From a virus (Duplodnaviria; Caudoviricetes): 32,873 nucleotides of DNA. Shown here one piece after another: positions 16,216-32,873 of this stretch. The notes under the pieces were generated by a model. That model saw only the letters and a list, made by a program, of their open reading frames with translations, did not search any database and was not told the DNA's origin. The position numbers and the translations under genes were made by a program. Location: positions 1-32,873 of IMG/VR virus record IMGVR_UViG_3300049167_000224, one strand, 5' to 3'. Positions within the stretch are counted from its first letter, which is position 1. Every line of letters starts with the position of its first letter.

Positions 16216-16938
16216 CTACTCATTTGGCTTATGAATCTTGTTTTGTGGATTCGCTAAGTATGCATTGAATTGAGCATATACAGAATGATAACCAATTGCG
16301 TAAGCTCCACTTACAGGATTCCATGCTTCGTAACATCTGGCTGCTCTTTTAATCTTATCTTTCTGTGCTGTTGTAGCTGTATAAATGCTACCTGGTCGAC
16401 TTAGAGCCCAATCAGATCGAGCAATATAGAATCTCGCATCGGTCACAATTCCAGCGTTGTACAACTCTAATAATGCCTGTCCGCTATATTTATGAGAATC
16501 GCTTGTATCGTGATAACTCATTGCTTTGTAAGATACTCCTGCTGTTCCATATTCATTTACATATTCCATCATGAGCGCTTTTACTGAATCTTTTGTAACT
16601 GGATCACCTTCTGAATCTATAGCCCGTAAATGTATATTCTCCGGTGGAACTCCTAGTTGCCCTAATGCGGATTGAAATTCTCTATTTCTAGCTGCAGAAA
16701 AATCATCATCGGTTAATTCTGTATATCCTTCTAAATATGGGTTATGTGCTGTTCCCCAATATGCGGATGTTCCGTCACCAATGAGTACATCTTGGACAAA
16801 AGAACCTTTCCCAGAAGTGTAGAGAACTACTATTACCTCTCGTCCTGCTACTAGGTGATTCAAAATATCAATAGCTGCCTGTAGGGTTTCATCATCTTGA
16901 TGAGGTATAAAGAATATTGCTGGACCTAACATCAACAT
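16216..16938 (-). CDS. PIG-L/LmbE-family deacetylase
   Basis: PHQDDE metal-binding motif, R..EF..AL..LGV, H....SH. Confidence 0.85.
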   Translation of the reverse strand: MLMLGPAIFFIPHQDDETLQAAIDILNHLVAGREVIVVLYTSGKGSFVQDVLIGDGTSAYWGTAHNPYLEGYTELTDDDFSAARNREFQSALGQLGVPPENIHLRAIDSEGDPVTKDSVKALMMEYVNEYGTAGVSYKAMSYHDTSDSHKYSGQALLELYNAGIVTDARFYIARSDWALSRPGSIYTATTAQKDKIKRAARCYEAWNPVSGAYAIGYHSVYAQFNAYLANPQNKIHKPNE

Positions 16939-17940: not shown

Positions 17941-17973
17941 ATGGATTTAATTTTTAGTGATTTAATCAAATAA
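17941..17973 (+). CDS. 10-aa micro-ORF MDLIFSDLIK
   Basis: AGGAGGT SD 6 nt upstream; 35 nt before the DUF6173-like gene. Confidence 0.35.
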   Translation: MDLIFSDLIK

Positions 17974-18008: not shown

Positions 18009-18380
18009 ATGTCAGATTCATTTAATTTTTCAGTACCTAATTTACCGATAGAGAAACTTAAAACCATAAATCAACAAAATTTAGCAGACCAATTTCAAAA
18101 AAGACTGCTAGAAATGGTATATGACTTTGAGTCAAATCTCGACCAAGAACATGAGGTAGGAATGAGACTTGTTTCATTTGGTCAGACTGTATCTTTTCAT
18201 GTAAATGATATCGGATACTATAACCCTAGTCTAATTACCTTCTCAGGAATTCTTGAAAACGGCAGTCCAGTAGAACTTATACAACACGTTAGCCAAATTA
18301 GTTTTCTATTAATGTCTGTTCCTAAATTAGATCCTGAGAAACCACCTAAAAGAATAGGTTTTGTTCAAAAAGAAGACTAG
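18009..18380 (+). CDS. DUF6173-like hypothetical protein
   Basis: EVGMRLVSFG, IGYYNPSLITF.G, ELIQHVSQISFLL, C-terminal RIGF; SD GAGG. Confidence 0.78.
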   Translation: MSDSFNFSVPNLPIEKLKTINQQNLADQFQKRLLEMVYDFESNLDQEHEVGMRLVSFGQTVSFHVNDIGYYNPSLITFSGILENGSPVELIQHVSQISFLLMSVPKLDPEKPPKRIGFVQKED

Positions 18381-19509: not shown

Positions 19510-20586
19510 TTATATCAGACGCTTTGCAATCTCATAAATAACAGTTGTAGTAACTGAATTCCCAGCTTGTTTATAAAGTTGCGAATCCTTCAAACCTGTT
19601 TCTTTTGCCTTATAAAATGCCCAATCTGGAAATGCCTGTAGCCTCCAACATTCCAACGGTGTGAGCTTCCTTACACGATAACCATCATATACCCCATGAG
19701 TATCCTGTGCTGTCAGAGTAAACATTGGTTCACCATCTGTTTTCATCCTCCGACCGTTTTGTCTCTTTTTTTCTCTTTCAGGTGTAAGCACTGCAATATG
19801 TGTTCTTTTGGCTTTTTTCAGTGAACTTATCCCTTTGCTATAATTCGCATCTAAACAATATGCTAAACCTTCACCAGTAGATAATTGAGTAGGTACAAGG
19901 TATAGCCCAGTTTTTGCTCCTCCACCTCCAGCTTCCGCTTTCAATGTCCTTGCTAATCCCTTTGAATCGTAAACCCGAAATGCATCTGCAGCTGGACCGT
20001 TTATTTGTTGGAGAGCAACCGTTCCGCCTTTTCCTGTGATAGGAAATACTTGTCGGGTACGGTGTCTTCTAGAATGTCCGATAATGAAGACCCTCTTCCT
20101 TCGTTGTGGAACTCCTCCATGAATCGAGCTGTCAAGCACTTGCCATTCCGCATCATACCCCAATTCATCCAACGTTCGGAGGATAACCTCAAACGTAGAG
20201 CCTTCGTCGTGATCAAGCAATCCTTTGACGTTCTCAAGGAGTAGATACTTGGGTTGGAGAATAGAGGCAAACCTTGCAATTTCAAAAAAGAGTGTACCTC
20301 TAACATCACTGAAACCTCCCCGTTTTCCCGCCACTGAGAAAGCTTGGCATGGAAATCCTCCACAGATAATGTTAATTGGTCCTCGCTCTCTTCCAAGTAA
20401 TCGAATATCGTCATCTGTGACGCTGGTAATGTCATGAGCTGTCCACTCTCCCTCTGGTTGATGTATGGCTTTATATGCTTGTCTTGCGTATTTGTCTATT
20501 TCTACCCATCCGGCTGTTTGATTCCCGGCAGCTTCCATACCAAAGCGAAAACCGCCGATTCCTGAGAAGAGATCAAGCACTCTCAT
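19510..20586 (-). CDS. dcm: DNA (cytosine-5) methyltransferase, orphan
   Basis: Motifs I DLFSGIGG, IV GGFPCQAFS, VI ENVKG, VIII Q.RKRVF, IX RKLTPLECWRLQ.FP, X GNSV. Confidence 0.96.
   Translation of the reverse strand: MRVLDLFSGIGGFRFGMEAAGNQTAGWVEIDKYARQAYKAIHQPEGEWTAHDITSVTDDDIRLLGRERGPINIICGGFPCQAFSVAGKRGGFSDVRGTLFFEIARFASILQPKYLLLENVKGLLDHDEGSTFEVILRTLDELGYDAEWQVLDSSIHGGVPQRRKRVFIIGHSRRHRTRQVFPITGKGGTVALQQINGPAADAFRVYDSKGLARTLKAEAGGGGAKTGLYLVPTQLSTGEGLAYCLDANYSKGISSLKKAKRTHIAVLTPEREKKRQNGRRMKTDGEPMFTLTAQDTHGVYDGYRVRKLTPLECWRLQAFPDWAFYKAKETGLKDSQLYKQAGNSVTTTVIYEIAKRLI
20001..20435 (-). CDS. Nested out-of-frame 144-aa protein, putative second subunit of the cytosine MTase
   Basis: Same strand, different frame, fully inside dcm; ends SLSDILEDTVPDKYFLSQEKAERLL, a segment I recognise from phage C5 MTases. 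Confidence 0.65.
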   Translation of the reverse strand: MTLPASQMTIFDYLEESEDQLTLSVEDFHAKLSQWRENGEVSVMLEVHSFLKLQGLPLFSNPSIYSLRTSKDCLITTKALRLRLSSERWMNWGMMRNGKCLTARFMEEFHNEGRGSSLSDILEDTVPDKYFLSQEKAERLLSNK

Positions 20587-20794
20587 AATGATCGTCCTCT
20601 TCTAAGGGAAAAGAATATTTTTCTAACTCACCATCTGTCATTTTCTTGGCTTGAAAGGTTACAAAGATAACGCTGTTATGTTCCCTAACTTGAAGGATAT
20701 CTATTATCTTGTAACCTTCATCACCAGCACGAAACACATCGCCCTTTGCTATGACATAACCCCTTTCCAGATTCCAAACAAAAGTTTCAATCAT
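20573..20794 (-). CDS. Hypothetical protein (73 aa)
   Basis: ATGA coupling with adenine MTase stop; SD GGAGG. Confidence 0.7.
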   Translation of the reverse strand: MIETFVWNLERGYVIAKGDVFRAGDEGYKIIDILQVREHNSVIFVTFQAKKMTDGELEKYSFPLEEDDHYESA

Positions 20795-21612
20795 TGCTGC
20801 CCCTCCCAATCGAATAAACTTGGTTGTAAATCGAAATTCATTAAAAGTAATTCCTCTGCCTTACAACTGGTCCCGTTAACAACTTGCTTTGTGGTCACAT
20901 ATGTTTCTTGCCTCCAGCTCGAGTAAAGCTCATCCAAAATAGGTTCATAATAATAGGAGACTATTGCCTTTCCTTGGATTCTGTTTAATAAAAATGCTAA
21001 TTCTCTATGATCTTGATCTGTAAATCCACCTGCATAATATTTTTCTCTTCCTATGTAAGGAGGATCAATATAGAACAAGGTATCAGGCGAATCATACTTT
21101 TCAATGATCTTCTTAAAATCATCGTGTTCAATCATTACGTTCTGGATCCGCTTTGAAAACATTTTTATCAACTGGCAAGCATTGCTGTATCCTTTCGCTG
21201 GGTTTTGACTTGCCGTGGTGCTGTGTCTCCAACCTGTCCGAGCTTTATCTGGGTTATTTCCTCCCGATATACCTGATCGATTGAGATAAAAGAACCGAAT
21301 CGCCCGGTCAAAATCATTCAATCCTTCTAGTCCCTCTCTTTTCCATCTCTCATAAAGTTGCCGACTATAGGGCAGGCTTTCTGCAGCTACAATAAATTTT
21401 TCTGTATCTGCTCTAGCTACAAGAAGAAAATTAACAAGGTCGCCGTCAATATCGTTGTACACATCTGTTTTAGCTTCTGGTTTCTGGGCTATCACATGAG
21501 CAGCACCACCAAAAGGCTCTACATATACCTTGTGATCAGGCATTCGATTGATGATCTCATTGGCCACTTTTGATTTACCACCGAACCATATAAGCGGTGA
21601 TCTTGTTTTCAT
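20791..21612 (-). CDS. DNA N6-adenine methyltransferase (Dam/D12 family), orphan
   Basis: Start MKTRSPLIWFGGK (SD AAGGGGG); YVEPFGG, NDID, FYIDPPY motifs. Confidence 0.95.
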   Translation of the reverse strand: MKTRSPLIWFGGKSKVANEIINRMPDHKVYVEPFGGAAHVIAQKPEAKTDVYNDIDGDLVNFLLVARADTEKFIVAAESLPYSRQLYERWKREGLEGLNDFDRAIRFFYLNRSGISGGNNPDKARTGWRHSTTASQNPAKGYSNACQLIKMFSKRIQNVMIEHDDFKKIIEKYDSPDTLFYIDPPYIGREKYYAGGFTDQDHRELAFLLNRIQGKAIVSYYYEPILDELYSSWRQETYVTTKQVVNGTSCKAEELLLMNFDLQPSLFDWEGQQ

Positions 21613-21713
21613 GTTGCTCCCCCTTGATTTCGCCCATCGTTTTTCGTACAATAGGCAATGTTGATAATTATCTAACTTCTGTGTCCAGCTAACCTCTGCG
21701 AAAGGTTGGCTTT

Positions 21714-21968
21714 TTATTTTTGTCCTCGATTTCCCATGATGCCACCCTCGCGAGAATCGATGTAACCTTTCTCTGCTTGATCCATCACCAAGCACATAAT
21801 CTCTATTGCATGTCTGTCCAACTCCCTCCCGATGAAATCAATTCCAAATCCCTTTCTCCAAAGCTTGCGAAACTCACGCAGCTGTTGATCCGTCCAAGTA
21901 AAGTTGTAATCATGCAAAGCTGTGTACTCGTATTGATGCCGTATCAGTGGTAGTACCTTCGCCATCAT
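21714..21968 (-). CDS. Small HTH-like phage protein
   Basis: F.W...Q...F..LW..G......EL.R...EI..L..D pattern common after phage loaders. Confidence 0.7.
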   Translation of the reverse strand: MMAKVLPLIRHQYEYTALHDYNFTWTDQQLREFRKLWRKGFGIDFIGRELDRHAIEIMCLVMDQAEKGYIDSREGGIMGNRGQK

Positions 21969-27732: not shown

Positions 27733-27857
27733 CACTTAACCCCCTTCTTCTTCTTTTGTTCCTCCAGAGCAACATCACGTAAATTCTTGATGCTGCCCTT
27801 TTGGATTTCCTTCACTTTCGGTGTGCTGTTATACACTTTGCCGATCCGTCTGAACAC
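27732..27857 (-). CDS. 41-aa basic protein MFRRIGKVYNSTPKVKEIQKGSIKNLRDVALEEQKKKKGVK, not in ORF track
   Basis: SD GGGAGGTG before GTG start. Confidence 0.6.
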   Translation of the reverse strand: MFRRIGKVYNSTPKVKEIQKGSIKNLRDVALEEQKKKKGVK

Positions 27858-28002
27858 TTGGTTCACCTCCCTTCACTAGTTCGCTTGCCAAATGACTTAT
27901 CCAAAGTTCCTTAGCAACAGATTTGATACGCTCTATCCGTTTCTCTCGTTCTTCATCTGTAAGAACTGGTGGTATAACTCGGACAACTGATTTATAATGC
28001 AC
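27829..28002 (-). CDS. 57-aa protein, paralog of 30914-31108; candidate recombination directionality factor; not in ORF track
   Basis: SD GGAGGGG; core SVVRVIPPVLTDEEREKRIERIKSVAKELW. Confidence 0.7.
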   Translation of the reverse strand: MHYKSVVRVIPPVLTDEEREKRIERIKSVAKELWISHLASELVKGGEPSVQTDRQSV

Positions 28003-28095: not shown

Positions 28096-28332
28096 TCAGC
28101 TCCCTGTTAGTGATAGTTCAATGGACGATTCGTCCAATTGATTTTCAAAAAAAAGCTCATCGATAGAAAGTTTGTAAAAATCCGCCAATATTTTTGCTTC
28201 TTCGATAGAGAAAGATTTGCGATTACCTTTTTCTCTTTTGTAGTAATACGATTCAGATATGTCTAACATCCTAGCTAATACAGCAACTTTTACTTTCCTT
28301 TTTTTTCTAAGCTCTTTTAGCTTGTTATTCAT
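28096..28332 (-). CDS. Cro-like XRE HTH regulator
   Basis: LKELRKKR...LA.ML.IS.SYY...EKG, SIDELFF; divergent from cI-like gene. Confidence 0.9.
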   Translation of the reverse strand: MNNKLKELRKKRKVKVAVLARMLDISESYYYKREKGNRKSFSIEEAKILADFYKLSIDELFFENQLDESSIELSLTGS

Positions 28333-28458
28333 GGTGTCACCTCAAATCCGCTTTTTCTTTTGGACGTTTCGTCCTATAGGTAAATATTAATGGACAAAAC
28401 GTCCAAAGTCAATATTTAATTTCCCGATTCGTCCAATTATTTTTGGACATATTGTACT
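28122..28458. promoter_or_regulatory. Five 15-bp operators, consensus TGGACr-N3-yGTCCA
   Basis: Sites at 28122, 28361, 28391, 28421, 28444. Confidence 0.8.
28384..28412 (-). promoter_or_regulatory. Lytic (cro) SigA promoter TTGACT-N17-TAATAT
   Basis: Near-consensus hexamers with operator 28391-28405 in the spacer. Confidence 0.75.
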
Positions 28459-28497: not shown

Positions 28498-28827
28498 ATG
28501 ACTATTGGAGAACAAATAGTAAAATTACGAGAAAGAGAAAACATAAAGAGAGAAGATTTGGCGAAATCATTAGGCATTTCTTATTGGGCACTATCAAAAT
28601 ATGAAACAAATGCAAGAACACCAGATCCTGAAACTATGGGAGTAATAGCTGATTATTTCGGAGTTAGTGTGGATTACTTGCATGGTAGGTCAGAAGTGGA
28701 TGGAATTCTAAATATTTGGAGACAAAGGATTCGAAACGGGGAAAAAATTATCTTAAAAGACATTGTACTAACAGAGAAACATATTGATAACATGGAAAAT
28801 GCTCTAAATGAAAAAGACGACCAATAA
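28498..28827 (+). CDS. CI-like XRE repressor (no autocleavage domain)
   Basis: LRE...I.REDLA..LGIS...LSKYE...R.P, ADYFGVSVDYL.GR; 109 aa. Confidence 0.9.
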   Translation: MTIGEQIVKLRERENIKREDLAKSLGISYWALSKYETNARTPDPETMGVIADYFGVSVDYLHGRSEVDGILNIWRQRIRNGEKIILKDIVLTEKHIDNMENALNEKDDQ

Positions 28828-28832
28828 GCCGT

Positions 28833-29207
28833 CTAGTGCTTTAATTTCAAAATTTCTTGTAAGGGTTTTTCTATCCATCTATCGAAAAAATTAGTTACGA
28901 TCTGAACTTCCTCTTCAATTGAAGCAATTATACTTTTTACTTCTACATATGTAGTAACACCCACGCTATCCGGTTCGGGATGGCTTTTTGTGTTGCTTTC
29001 AACCTTCGCAAATGCACTGCTCAATCTATCCAAGAATTTCCTCACTCCATCCTCCACATTTCCTTTAGCCATGCGACTGTATTCATTTCGATTAAGGGAT
29101 GTAGCTTTTTTGGAAACTTCGGAACTAAATCTCATGAAGGAATTACTTACATCATTCAAAAATTGATTCACTTGTTCTTTCCTTATACTACTGTTTTCTG
29201 CTTGCAT
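28833..29207 (-). CDS. 124-aa helical hypothetical protein, divergent from HTH-TPR gene and convergent on cI
   Basis: SD AAAGAGGTG 6 nt before ATG 29207. Confidence 0.72.
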   Translation of the reverse strand: MQAENSSIRKEQVNQFLNDVSNSFMRFSSEVSKKATSLNRNEYSRMAKGNVEDGVRKFLDRLSSAFAKVESNTKSHPEPDSVGVTTYVEVKSIIASIEEEVQIVTNFFDRWIEKPLQEILKLKH

Positions 29208-29399
29208 GATATTCACCTCTTTGTATGCGGTTGCACTATAAGTTGGAAGGTTATATATGCTAGATATTTCTTTCTATGGAGTATTTATCTATTTAACTGT
29301 TTCATTTATAATGTTATTTATCTTCACTATTTTTGTATTTTTTAATTTACTGTGAATATATCACAGAAAAAATTCGTTGTCTAAGAGCAAAAATTCCAA

Positions 29400-29498
29400 T
29401 TTGGTGCATGGTTTCGTGCACCAAAACCGCTTTTTTATACGTTTTGGTCAAAATAAGGCATTTTGGTGCATGATCTCGTGCACCAAAACGGCTTTTTT
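29400..29498. promoter_or_regulatory. Two 37-bp direct repeats (62-bp period) each containing palindrome TTTGGTGCA-N8-TGCACCAAA; putative operators
   Basis: 29400-29436 and 29462-29498, 34/37 identical; upstream of -10 TACAAT (29527). Confidence 0.8.
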
Positions 29499-29551: not shown

Positions 29552-30763
29552 GTGATGGAAATAGATAATTTTGTTGAAATTATCCAAAAAGTCCGTATAA
29601 AAAAAGGATTAACTTTACGTGATCTAGCTGATCAAATCGGTTGTAACCACACTACCCTATCTAGATTTGAACAAGGAAAAACCAAACTTAATGATGATAC
29701 ATTAGAGCTGCTACTAACTGCATTAGACATCCAGCAAGACGATTTGCCTACCCTTCAACTAACCTTTCAGTACGAAGATACGATTGACCTATTTGCTTTT
29801 CAGTCAGTTGAAGCACAAGTAAAGCTTGGTGTATTGAAACAACATCAGCTCAACAAAAAACTGGAATACATCAACGGCGAAATCACTCAATGTTACCTGA
29901 GAGCCAAAAGATGCCTTGTGGATGGTAATCATGAAGAAGCAACAGAAATATATGAACTCATCCTTAATGCCGATGAAAAAAAATACGATCCGAAATCCAA
30001 CTTAAAATCTGCATCACTCAGTGATTTGGCTGTCATGAGGTATAAAGAAAACGACCATAAAAGTGCTCTGCTCTATCTGGATAAAGCAATAAAAGTATAT
30101 ACTCAAAAAGGACAAAGACTCAGCACTTGGCACAATATCCACTACAACAAAGCTCTTATATACTACGAGCTAGGGAATATAGACGAAGCAGAAAAGTGGT
30201 TGAATATCATTTGGCCTAATAGGTCACATATTACTGGGCGACTAAAAATACAGGTATATGAGTTAAAAGCATCTATTTATCAAGTAAAGGGACTAACAGA
30301 CAATGCAGTGAATGTGCTTCGTAAGGCAATGGAAATTGCTTCTGCTCAAGAAAATGCAGACGCCATATTCTATATTCTTATGGTTCTTGGGAATCTCTCC
30401 CTTGATCATAAATTATACGTCAATGCAGAAAGATGCTTCCAATCCGCAATAGACATCCAAGGCGCACTACAAAAAACTACACCAGGTATTGCATATGTAG
30501 AAATTTCGAATGTATTTCTTATACAGAGCAAACTAGATAAAGCAAAAGAGCACATCGCAGAAGCAATCAAATGTGCGAAGAAGTCTAAAGACATGCATGA
30601 TCTCATTAAAGCATATATTGTTGAAGGGAAGATATATGAAGCAGAAGGCAACCGATATGATGCTCACAACAGTTACAAAGAGGCTCAACGATTAGCTGAA
30701 AAATACCAATACGATCTTTACAAACCTACTTTATCTGAACATATCTTTCGATGTACCAACTAA
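29552..30763 (+). CDS. XRE-HTH plus TPR regulator (RRNPP-like peptide receptor)
   Basis: N-terminal KGLTLRDLADQIG...TTLSRFEQG; multiple TPRs (YNKALIYYELGNIDEA, LGNL......NAERCFQSA, EGKIYEAEGN..DA). Confidence 0.9.
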   Translation: MMEIDNFVEIIQKVRIKKGLTLRDLADQIGCNHTTLSRFEQGKTKLNDDTLELLLTALDIQQDDLPTLQLTFQYEDTIDLFAFQSVEAQVKLGVLKQHQLNKKLEYINGEITQCYLRAKRCLVDGNHEEATEIYELILNADEKKYDPKSNLKSASLSDLAVMRYKENDHKSALLYLDKAIKVYTQKGQRLSTWHNIHYNKALIYYELGNIDEAEKWLNIIWPNRSHITGRLKIQVYELKASIYQVKGLTDNAVNVLRKAMEIASAQENADAIFYILMVLGNLSLDHKLYVNAERCFQSAIDIQGALQKTTPGIAYVEISNVFLIQSKLDKAKEHIAEAIKCAKKSKDMHDLIKAYIVEGKIYEAEGNRYDAHNSYKEAQRLAEKYQYDLYKPTLSEHIFRCTN

Positions 30764-30802
30764 CACTTCAATTTCTTACACTAGCTATAAGGAGGTCATT
30801 CC

Positions 30803-30829
30803 ATGAAAGGCGATCCAATAGATGGTTAG
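30803..30829 (+). CDS. Leaderless 8-aa peptide MKGDPIDG, putative cognate signal
   Basis: TAAGGAGGT SD 6 nt before ATG; in-frame upstream TAA; tandem TAG-TAA stops; terminator immediately after. Confidence 0.7.
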   Translation: MKGDPIDG

Positions 30830-30836
30830 TAACAGC

Positions 30837-30866
30837 AGCGGTCTAGGAAACTAGACCGCTTTTTTT
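30837..30866 (+). terminator. Intrinsic terminator
   Basis: AGCGGTCTAG-GAAA-CTAGACCGCT then T6. Confidence 0.92.
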
Positions 30867-30913: not shown

Positions 30914-31108
30914 CTAACTGTCATATCTTGCTTCACCTTTCAGCCATAATATACGTGCTACTTTGCGTATTCTTTCTATTATCATATCTCTTTCCTCTTT
31001 AGAAATATCTGGTGCGATTATATGGACAGAAGTCCCTCCCATTTGATAAGTTTTTGTATAATGTGTATATGGATTTAAGCTATTATCGGGCTTTTTTATA
31101 AAAATCAC
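30914..31108 (-). CDS. Small protein divergent from integrase; candidate recombination directionality factor
   Basis: Core TSVHIIAPDISKEERDMIIERIRKVARILW; own terminator; start codon uncertain. Confidence 0.65.
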   Translation of the reverse strand: MIFIKKPDNSLNPYTHYTKTYQMGGTSVHIIAPDISKEERDMIIERIRKVARILWLKGEARYDS

Positions 31109-31163: not shown

Positions 31164-32717
31164 ATGGACAGGGTAGCAATGTATTTAAGAAAATCACGTG
31201 CCGATCTAGATGCAGAAACACATGGTGAAGGGGAAACCCTCGAAAAACATCGAAAAATGCTGGTTGAATTGTCTAAAGAAAAGAATTACAACATTATCAA
31301 GACATATGAAGAAATTGCATCAGGAGAAAGCGTTGATCAACGCCCAGAAATGATTAAGCTATTGGATAATGTACAACGTGGATTGTATGATGCTGTTTTG
31401 GTAATTGACATAGATCGGCTTGGTAGAGGAAGAATGCAAGACCAAGGATTAATACTTGATACCTTTAAGGAATCCAAAACCAAGATCATAACCCCAAGGA
31501 AGGTATATGACCTACAGGATGAATTTGATGAAGAATACTCGGAATTTGAAGCCTTTCTAGCAAGAAAAGAGTACAAGCTCATTCGTCGTCGTATGGAGCG
31601 TGGGATGATTCGTGCATTGAAAGATGGATATTATCTTGGAGCACGACCACCATATGGATACCGCAAAATCAAAAATAACCGAATCGCTACATTAGAAATA
31701 GATCCAGAGCAATCAAAGATCGTACAAATGATATTTGATTGGTACACCTCACATGATCCCAACAAAAGAGCTGGTGCATCTAACATTGCTAAACGTCTTA
31801 CTGAAATGGGAATCAAATCTTATAATGGCGTAGCATGGAATGCACATGTTGTGCTGCGAATACTTTCCAACCCTGTCTATATAGGTAAAATCATTTGGAA
31901 ACAAAGAGATCGAAAAAAACTAAATAAACCGAATCATAAATCTACTAGTCAATTTCGACCTGAATCGGAACAAATAATAGTAGATGGTCACCATCCAGCA
32001 ATAATAAGTATCGAACAATTTGAGCAGGTACAAACGATCCGAAACTCCCGATATCACCCCAGTTTCTCCGAAAAACGACCTTTGCAAAATCCCTTATCAG
32101 GATTGATCATTTGTGGTTTTTGTGGTGGTAAAATGAGTACTTATCGTGCAGGAAAACACAAATATACATACATCCGTTGTGCTAAAAAAGGGCGTGGTGG
32201 GGGATGCAATCGAGTCTCAAGGCTGGAATATGTGGAAAATCGTACGATTGAAGGATTGAAAGATTGGCTTCATCAGTATGAACAAGCATTACAAGTTGAC
32301 AATGCAGGTGAAGCAGATGATAGCCATCTGGAAGTATTCGAATTAACAATCCAGTCATTACAAGATGAACTAAAGAAACTAGAAAAACAAAAGGATAAGC
32401 TACACGATTTTCTTGAACGTGGCATCTACGATGATGAAACTTTCTTGGAACGCTCAAAAAAAATCAGCAGTCGAATTAAAGACTTACAACAGCAGCTGCA
32501 TAGGGTTACTGAAGACTATGAGATCGAAAAACAAAGGATAGCATCTCGTGTGGACACTATCCCTCGTGTCAAAAGAGTATTGGATATATACAGCGAATTA
32601 GAATCGCCTCAAGAAAAAAACATCCTGCTTCGAGAAATCATTGAAAAATGTGTTTACAGAAAAACAAAAGATCAGCGAAATGATGAATTTTCATTGGAAA
32701 TATATCCGAGAATTTGA
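31164..32717 (+). CDS. Large serine recombinase (integrase)
   Basis: Catalytic YLRKS, DRLGR, PPYGY, LSNPVYIG, Zn ribbon CGFCG...C...C, coiled coil. Confidence 0.97.
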   Translation: MDRVAMYLRKSRADLDAETHGEGETLEKHRKMLVELSKEKNYNIIKTYEEIASGESVDQRPEMIKLLDNVQRGLYDAVLVIDIDRLGRGRMQDQGLILDTFKESKTKIITPRKVYDLQDEFDEEYSEFEAFLARKEYKLIRRRMERGMIRALKDGYYLGARPPYGYRKIKNNRIATLEIDPEQSKIVQMIFDWYTSHDPNKRAGASNIAKRLTEMGIKSYNGVAWNAHVVLRILSNPVYIGKIIWKQRDRKKLNKPNHKSTSQFRPESEQIIVDGHHPAIISIEQFEQVQTIRNSRYHPSFSEKRPLQNPLSGLIICGFCGGKMSTYRAGKHKYTYIRCAKKGRGGGCNRVSRLEYVENRTIEGLKDWLHQYEQALQVDNAGEADDSHLEVFELTIQSLQDELKKLEKQKDKLHDFLERGIYDDETFLERSKKISSRIKDLQQQLHRVTEDYEIEKQRIASRVDTIPRVKRVLDIYSELESPQEKNILLREIIEKCVYRKTKDQRNDEFSLEIYPRI

Positions 32718-32804: not shown

Positions 32805-32873
32805 ATGAAAAAGGAAAACGGATTAGCATGGTTTAACATCATCTTTGGTGCGTTGCTATACATAGGTGCATTT
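32805..32873 (+). CDS. Partial membrane/secreted protein (MKKENGLAWFNIIFGALLYIGAF...), runs off window
   Basis: SD GAGGAG; basic N-terminus plus hydrophobic stretch. Confidence 0.55.
   Translation, partial: MKKENGLAWFNIIFGALLYIGAF

Follow-up and report, generated by a model that had tools for sequence, protein, structure and literature searches.

Can a phage regulator of the RRNPP type take as its ligand a peptide that is made ready for use and never secreted? This question is raised by a Caudoviricetes virus (IMG/VR record IMGVR_UViG_3300049167_000224, positions 1 to 32,873; this whole stretch of 32,873 nucleotides is referred to here as the window), in which a gene for an HTH-TPR protein is followed by an open reading frame (ORF) for the eight residues MKGDPIDG. 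By definition, RRNPP systems export their peptide and take it up again; an earlier note on this DNA had proposed that the two genes form a new lysis-lysogeny signalling system built on a peptide without a leader.

The Receptor-Peptide Unit

The unit consists of four features:

29552..30763, + strand: HTH-TPR receptor of 402/403 aa, NprR/Rap-like (Pfam, model of its homolog P0006, tree)
30788..30796, + strand: Shine-Dalgarno (SD) sequence TAAGGAGGT, identical in phage records L255 and L002, its TAA forming an in-frame stop
30803..30829, + strand: leaderless peptide ORF MKGDPIDG, with homologous ORFs in other phage records
30837..30867, + strand: intrinsic terminator closing the receptor-peptide unit, a hairpin plus T run

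The HTH-TPR gene, TAAGGAGGT, the MKGDPIDG frame 39 nt past the receptor stop and the terminator are all present as the earlier note had described them. A GTG at 29552 opens the 403-aa receptor frame, and the ATG at 29555 (402 aa) is the likelier start, because AAAGGTGA precedes it by 6 nt and P0002, the protein in the database, has 402 residues. Pfam finds an N-terminal HTH_3 followed by TPR_12 (E 6e-22) and TPR_MalT (E 1e-19), and the length of 403 aa with TPRs lies inside the 250-500 aa range of the RRNPP_detector signature, as does the 39-nt distance from the receptor stop to the peptide ATG within its range of -60 to 400 nt. From 30803 the peptide frame reads ATG AAA GGC GAT CCA ATA GAT GGT TAG TAA and ends in two stops. 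Since the in-frame TAA at 30788 lies inside the SD, no N-terminal leader can be added to MKGDPIDG; the peptide thus has no signal peptide, as had been claimed, and is hydrophilic and acidic (GRAVY -0.86). The terminator is a 10-bp hairpin (30837-30860) with a T run after it (-18.3 kcal/mol).

An SD and a short ORF are by themselves not rare in the window: where a start codon is preceded by at least 7 nt of SD match (21 cases), the frame is no longer than 30 aa in five. The micro-ORF is therefore taken as real because it is conserved in all four other phage records, and not because of its SD; it is very likely translated. Elsewhere in the window, a 10-codon ORF, MDLIFSDLIK, with the SD AGGAGGTG (17941-17973, + strand), stands just 5' of a DUF6173 gene (18009-18380).

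Conservation of the Peptide ORF among Phages

The expectation that a micro-ORF would also follow homologs of the receptor is borne out. Leaderless ORFs of 7-9 aa with the pattern M-x-G[DG]PxD[GS] are found in 4/4 other phage records with a receptor 3' end, a set obtained by searching viral contigs at the protein level (L256 was initially met via a peptide-biased pattern and afterwards also recovered by protein search), a count that leaves out P0004, P0005, P0008, P0009, P0011 and P0013, which are proteins only. Each has an SD and a downstream hairpin:

L255: receptor 72% identical, peptide MLMGDPTDG
L002: receptor 76% identical (C-terminal part only), peptide MFMGDPTDG
L256: receptor 35% identical, peptide MGDPRDG
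L257: receptor 37% identical, peptide MGGPSDS

Synonymous variation is seen in these ORFs, both in the Pro codon (CCA/CCT/CCC) and in the stop (TAG/TAA). Among the window, L255 and L002, the SD is identical at 9/9 positions and the GDPxDG core with its stop at 18-19/21, compared with 17-18/25 for the spacer. The notion of a chance ORF is rejected, as the motif is conserved across records with synonymous changes. P0006, a receptor 50% identical to that of the window, continues in frame into KGGIQMGDPHDG and thus has the same motif as its C-terminal end. Contigs from two other studies (runs X2 and X3) list no change within the peptide ORF; the allele in run X4 is of the L002 type, with 3 nt inserted in frame, and is not treated as independent evidence.

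Two of these records have features of their own. In L256 there is a further peptide gene (L256:5672-5701; L091:3240-3300), distinct from the first, which encodes MLLGDPSDA and has an SD and a terminator to itself; it lies ~500 nt past the first and 3' of a membrane-protein gene, and may represent a second code or a signal aimed at the receptors of other phages. In L002 (2900-3351), the first two thirds of the receptor gene are missing and the remainder adjoins replication genes, while the peptide and the integrase, the latter 98% identical to the window integrase, are intact; the loss may be a deletion or an assembly join.

No match to the receptor was present among 50,697 phage records. A pattern scan of metagenomes gave eight matches, none with a receptor, and the viral run of the same pattern gave four records, all already known. 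Of 84 matches in a peptide-based viral scan, a receptor was present in three records; two further short ORFs from the viral scan (L020, L032) are without a receptor. A genome scan with A1 gave 60 stretches, none of them related. HTH-only matches (L004, L005, L095, L096) were left out.

Receptor Family, Host and Peptide Forms

Profile searches recovered 401 proteins at E 1e-10, and all 79 genome loci of a related clade that have a taxon in their titles are from Thermoactinomycetaceae. The window integrase shares 59% identity with one from G007 (Seinonella), and at most 47% with those of phage records; a G028 terminase is 77% identical to that of the window. The phage host therefore likely belongs to the Thermoactinomycetaceae, probably as a soil bacterium of this family. 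Genomes of this group hold 6 to 30 receptor paralogs each, and the receptor belongs to an NprR/Rap-like family of the Thermoactinomycetaceae that likely corresponds to RRNPP_detector's subfam_17. Neither a phage-clade receptor (best match 243 bits) nor X, a gene of the phage module described below, was found in 53 genomes of the order.

When 212 distinct receptor 3' ends were sorted by fixed rules, with the signal class defined by our own hydrophobicity rule and not by SignalP, three peptide forms emerged. Classical secreted propeptides follow 60/212 ends; these overlap the receptor gene, are ~34-86 aa long with a basic N-terminus and a hydrophobic stretch, and mostly end in (D/E/Q/N)PG(G/S)x. 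Leaderless peptides follow 45/212, the five phage ones included, and mostly end in DPP(D/G/E); those with an SD of 5+ (n=38) have a median length of 12 aa and a mean GRAVY of -0.84. The motif is carried on an in-frame tail in 20/212, and no peptide was found under these rules in 87/212. These counts come from a biased sample, as 79 loci came from a signal-peptide-clade query, and from a classification that errs both ways, with doubtful entries (MKPGNQ, MNPKS, L147, L317) and evident peptides that were missed (L099, L197, L236). In genomes G006-G010 (n=44), there are 15 leaderless, 8 tail and 2 signal forms and 19 with none; in G049 (Shimazuella soli, n=27), the corresponding numbers are 13, 4, 1 and 9. 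The earlier reading of the pair as a stand-alone phage invention thus gives way to that of one branch within a host family in which many members are leaderless: judged from these loci, the leaderless form is not phage-specific, and many examples lie on host chromosomes.

Secreted, leaderless and in-frame-tail peptides have a C-terminal (D/E)P motif in common; the leaderless forms show no common N-terminal feature. An SD of 6+ nt with an ORF of 5-30 aa ending in [DE]P plus 1-5 residues follows 28/152 non-signal receptor ends as compared with 1/386 other ORF ends (36/152 and 6/386 with an SD of 4+), with the motif chosen post hoc from the data and shadow ORFs included among the control ORF ends. 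An internal in-frame SD and start are kept in 20/22 receptors that end in the motif, and therefore a free peptide is likely made from the tail receptors too.

Several variants of this arrangement occur. Receptors with the peptide as their C-terminus are possible tethered ligands (P0006; L189, L195, L196, L243, L274, L281, L283 and others). In the chromosomal loci L190, L198, L218, L244 and L248, the receptor is followed by two tandem leaderless genes, or its tail by a free copy. Acidic GDDD-type cores replace DPP in a leaderless subclass (L094, L188, L194, L249, L310, L316, L327), of which L094 is a viral record.

The Receptor Tree

Trees were made from 207 rows (FastTree) and from 58 rows (IQ-TREE); the receptor tree is unrooted, and the order of the peptide forms is not given by it. 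The eight phage-clade receptors form one branch (support 99). Their sister group (support 99) includes G049 chromosomal receptors, one of them with the leaderless MIMKGEPRTDILGEPDHF, and the nearest sisters, L206 and L234, are chromosomal and without phage genes nearby. The signal-peptide receptors lie mostly on one separate branch (7 changes vs 41 when shuffled). A clade joining the 8 phage-clade rows with 21 signal-clade rows is rejected (p-AU 0.0006), in an AU test that used 58 of 209 rows and a grouping picked after the trees were seen. The phage-clade receptors end ~35-40 residues before their relatives do, without the last helix, and close in a conserved CxN (window 30640-30763).

These results bear on the possibility, raised in the earlier note, that relatives carry a full signal-peptide gene and that the copy in the window is a deletion scar. 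Relatives do carry such genes, as the secreted class demonstrates. The scar itself is contradicted: a single, recent and private deletion is rejected, since leaderless peptides occur throughout the phage clade and also in its chromosomal sisters, and since the clade of phage and signal-peptide receptors is itself rejected.

Receptor Structure and Candidate Peptide Groove

The AlphaFold model of P0006 (pLDDT 94.7) shows an HTH followed by an all-helical TPR superhelix. Its best matches are NprR (Z 24.4, rmsd 5.2, 328 residues aligned), LGN (Z 24.2) and peptide-bound Rap (Z 24.1). Because the NprR and Rap scores tie with that of the eukaryotic LGN, this predicted fold match identifies a TPR superhelix and not a family. 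AimR, PlcR and RopB are absent among the 50 structural matches listed for this model, and the RNPP_C profile reaches 18 bits on the receptor vs a cut-off of 26.5. The earlier description of the receptor as RRNPP-like is in keeping with the nine-TPR proteins NprR and Rap being among these tied matches.

Peptides are anchored by Asn residues in RRNPP grooves. Across 105 receptors, conserved Asn columns are kept at N150, N167 and N199, the fourth position being Q266. The best peptide-pocket covariation among 105 pairs, confounded by clades, is that of P+1 with Y198 (z 4.6), which adjoins N199. Docking of the fused tail is not seen in either AlphaFold tail model: the tail of P0006 has pLDDT 54 and 43 with no placement, and that of P0147 climbs from 37 to 64 across its last 8 residues, which is at most a hint. 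The peptide very probably binds the TPR groove via its GDPxDG core.

The cro/cI/X Module

The pair lies next to a set of genes and sites that resemble the control region of a temperate phage:

28096..28332, - strand: cro-like HTH gene (HTH_3), 78 aa, heading the early lytic operon
28498..28827, + strand: short cI-like repressor, 109 aa, HTH only, its putative repressor role suggested by position
28833..29207, - strand: gene X, 124 aa, convergent with cI and divergent from the receptor, SD GAGGTG
29355..29383, - strand: promoter-like site of X, TAGACA-17-TG-TATATT, with TTTACA-17-TATATT at the same place in L001/L255
29404..29421, no strand: palindrome GTGCA-N8-TGCAC, copy 1, a candidate receptor operator, kept in L255 with a different N8
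29466..29483, no strand: palindrome GTGCA-N8-TGCAC, copy 2, 62 bp from copy 1 (63 bp in L255)
31164..32717, + strand: large serine integrase, a temperate-phage context

The receptor does lie between cI and the integrase, as the earlier note had it, except that X and 340 nt of regulatory DNA separate it from cI. The lysis-lysogeny setting is supported by the position of the pair in the control region of several phages. No autocleavage or peptidase domain was detected in the 109-aa repressor. X matches no Pfam, NCBIfam or PHROG family and gave no usable lead in the ESM Atlas; its place suggests that it is a candidate output gene, perhaps an antirepressor.

Both palindromes sit just upstream of the predicted -35 of X, within the X-receptor interval, and they are the only GTGCA-N8-TGCAC matches in the window, even with one mismatch allowed. 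Since shuffled sequences give two matches at one mismatch in 19/100, the case for them rests on their position and conservation. The boxes are absent from L256 and L257, and they could instead be RNA hairpins, being terminator-like in the hairpin listing. Between the window and L255, the boxes are kept where the receptors are 72% and the repressors (cI) only 27% identical, and the receptor is therefore favoured as their binder. It is reasonably likely, on these comparisons, that the receptor binds the boxes and drives X.

The layout of cro, short repressor, convergent X, receptor and peptide is found in six elements (the window, L255, L256, L257, L354 and L355), their receptors drawn from three separate branches of the tree. 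L355, a phage-like region of G047, has the leaderless MYNIPDPEES. L354 (6591-9436), a prophage of G010 (Thermoflavimicrobium), has a classical secreted propeptide ending in DPIGP, and is a candidate arbitrium-like system unrelated to AimR. The left part of the module is absent from L002.

X homologs are 63-65% identical in L255 and marginal in L256 (E 0.002-0.006 among four sequences); X has no detectable relation to the counterparts in L354 or L355, and the gene at the X position in L257 is short with a weak SD. From the window to L255, X is more conserved than cI, the reverse of the AimX/AimC pattern. Prediction of a cI-X complex gave a score of 0.00 in two runs, in which the fold of the partner is uncertain and the controls were not folded, and it counts neither for nor against an interaction. 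By analogy, X may inhibit the short cI as AimX inhibits AimC, a suggestion with somewhat less than an even chance of being right.

Other features surround the module. TGGACG/CGTCCA inverted repeats at 28122-28136, 28359-28407 and 28412-28444, between or within cro and cI, are candidate repressor operators. At 27829-28002 and 30914-31108 (- strand) lie two small genes that are alike in make-up and whose positions are xis/RDF-like; one follows cro and the other faces away from the integrase, and a similar 66-aa gene is present in L354. Past the integrase, a membrane-protein-like ORF begins (32805-32873), possibly on the host side of the attachment site; this flank has just one 32-nt match, in 1/53 genomes. 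Farther off, adjacent C5-cytosine and D12-class adenine methyltransferase genes (19510-21795, - strand) and a PIG-L-family deacetylase gene directly 5' of the packaging genes (16216-16938, - strand) are present.

A Proposed Intracellular Switch and Its Alternatives

The reading preferred here, tentatively, is that MKGDPIDG is a ready-made ligand of the HTH-TPR regulator, the pair forming an intracellular lysis-lysogeny switch that controls X, a likely antirepressor. The setting makes it probable that the pair acts on the choice between lysis and lysogeny, and action of the peptide without active export is mildly favoured. By analogy with arbitrium, the free receptor would turn X on, X would relieve repression by cI, and lysis would be favoured. 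From the receptor-peptide co-transcript, the peptide would accumulate with phage copy number and time, bind the receptor and turn X off, favouring lysogeny; should translation falter, the short-lived peptide would decay ahead of the receptor, permitting induction. The sign of this switch is taken from arbitrium, and the reverse is possible. For a leaderless, polar and co-transcribed peptide, the simplest action would be in the producing cell, reporting phage copies, infection time or translation rate. Thermoactinomycetaceae grow as hyphae, and in a filamentous host the peptide could spread via the shared cytoplasm. Intracellular action is favoured because there is no signal sequence, the peptide is acidic and hydrophilic, and the leaderless forms share no N-terminal feature.

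The strongest form of this notion is an independent second phage lysis/lysogeny peptide switch whose signal is never secreted, a cytoplasmic counter of phage genomes or translation capacity, either within single cells or through the cytoplasm that a filamentous host has in common along its hyphae. This form is possible, if doubtful. If true, the phages would carry one branch of a large unrecognised class of intracellular or self-tethered RRNPP ligands, used by up to about half of the host's receptors.

The strongest rival keeps the same receptor-peptide switch and lets the peptide exit intact cells by a non-Sec route, or at lysis, and be re-imported, yielding a communication signal convergent with arbitrium. 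Counting for this, and against action inside the cell alone, SIP and LCPss were tested and are secreted and re-imported although they have no leaders (PMC10518010), and the corresponding slot of prophage L354 holds a secreted propeptide. That peptides of close phages differ (I vs T at 72% receptor identity), and that L256 has its second peptide gene, would also suit a communication code, although divergence would equally be needed against cross-talk with up to 30 host paralogs in one cell. Against export, the LCPs described are mostly hydrophobic, whereas MKGDPIDG is acidic and polar; no transporter gene is seen in the module of any phage locus, and in-frame tails are not exportable while fused. 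Export appears possible but less likely than action inside the cell.

More improbable still is a real ligand-receptor unit, derived from the host family, whose output is not lysis-lysogeny but self-regulation, some other job of X, or host development such as sporulation. Spo0F is the target of Rap and NprR relatives, the nearest sisters of the phage receptors are chromosomal without phage genes nearby, and X is without a known family and not homologous across all loci. Against this, in six elements from three receptor branches the pair has cI and cro as neighbours, with one small convergent gene in the interval, and the only two box copies of the window fall in the X-receptor interval.

That the ORF is what remains of a signal-peptide gene, or is translated only to tune the mRNA (coupling, stability or terminator control), its product being no ligand, is very improbable: relatives with full propeptides exist (60/212), and one deletion could have removed both the propeptide gene and the last helix, which it overlaps in relatives, but the amino-acid motif is kept with synonymous changes among receptors 35-76% identical, the sister chromosomal receptor L206 keeps the last helix and is also leaderless, the grouping of phage and signal-peptide receptors is rejected, and leaderless genes are duplicated with their own SD at several loci.

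Comparison with Known Systems

The preferred intracellular switch can be set beside four described systems. The nearest in host and receptor is subfam_17 of RRNPP_detector (PMC10075063), which, in the rows of its tables that are considered here, comes from the same host family and has ~440-aa HTH-TPR receptors with overlapping Sec propeptides. Among its 'loose' rows are some 39-nt (12-codon) ORFs with AGGAGG, in the geometry of L277 and L291, two relatives in the receptor tree (1320 nt, +38; 1326/1431 nt, -4), a match made by gene length, spacing and ORF length (Tables S3 and S5) and not by sequence. The leaderless form, a trait of the host family, is thus partly present in that published table; among the rows listed, all are labelled chromosome with no prophage call, whereas the pair here is phage-borne. 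A leaderless or in-frame-tail class is not described in the main-text passages considered here. RRNPP_detector takes a Sec signal/SHP propeptide of 10-100 aa (PMC10075063), so that the 8-aa MKGDPIDG lies outside it and the 7-9-aa phage peptides are excluded by its 10-aa floor. Tools that set such a minimum of 10 aa and give preference to signal peptides have a blind spot here.

The RopB-SIP and LCP pairs (PMC10518010) resemble the window in having a leaderless ORF of 8-10 codons with a strong RBS that adjoins an intracellular TPR regulator. LCPs are mostly hydrophobic, aliphatic or aromatic, in contrast to the acidic, Pro-containing window peptide, and the window receptor differs from that of RopB-SIP in being ~400 aa and NprR/Rap-like, in a same-strand operon, and phage-borne. 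At E 0.01 the receptor has 20 NCBIfam and 17 Pfam matches, none of them to an Rgg family, and no RopB/Rgg PDB chain is matched by sequence. Membership of the RopB clan is rejected, as the receptor lies outside the RopB/Rgg clan and the peptide is not hydrophobic; the leaderless peptide here would have arisen independently of RopB-clan LCPs. Opp was dispensable for the streptococcal LCP tested, and the LCP survey reports no leaderless pairs in phages (PMC10518010), although RopB/LCP is the sole leaderless class with tested members. In the accessible part of a further source, leaderless peptides are mentioned solely for the five-TPR PrgX-TraA-ComR-Rgg clade (PMC12700828). No description of a phage-borne leaderless pair or of a three-form family was found in literature in which subscription journals are thinly covered, and such a pair is apparently undescribed in phages.

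NprR-NprX and Rap-Phr are the top structural matches of the TPR region, and the NprR-like HTH with Rap-like TPR architecture and length is shared with the window receptor. The receptors are 9-13% identical, NprX and Phr are Sec-exported and processed, and the fold match is tied with LGN.

The extended arbitrium module aimR-aimP-aimX-aimC-aimL, as far as its available description goes (10.1101/2025.11.23.689978), likewise combines a cro-like gene with a repressor that is short and has no autocleavage domain, and with a small convergent gene; in arbitrium the repressor is an HTH protein of 80-140 aa whose gene stands back to back with the cro-like one, an arrangement matched by the 109-aa and 78-aa genes here. 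DP-containing arbitrium peptides exist (DPPVGM in phi106; a DPG motif is also described). AimP is secreted, whereas the window peptide is leaderless; aimX, in the same available description, is downstream of aimP on the same strand, 29-80 aa long and under antitermination control, whereas X, at 124 aa, is longer, stands upstream in divergent orientation to the receptor and lies behind palindromic boxes. Membership of arbitrium is rejected: no AimR family model or PDB chain is matched by sequence, no secreted AimP is present, and X lies upstream.

Judged from gene order and homology, the pair would work like an RRNPP switch that is arbitrium-like in layout and lies outside arbitrium, the RopB clan and the classical propeptide systems. 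Within one receptor family, a single motif recurs in ligands that are secreted, leaderless or carried as in-frame tails, and as secreted and leaderless forms occur in the same phage switch layout, what export adds (a quorum signal as opposed to a timer or copy counter) becomes testable. These comparisons point to a phage decision system that is unrelated to AimR and has converged on the arbitrium layout.
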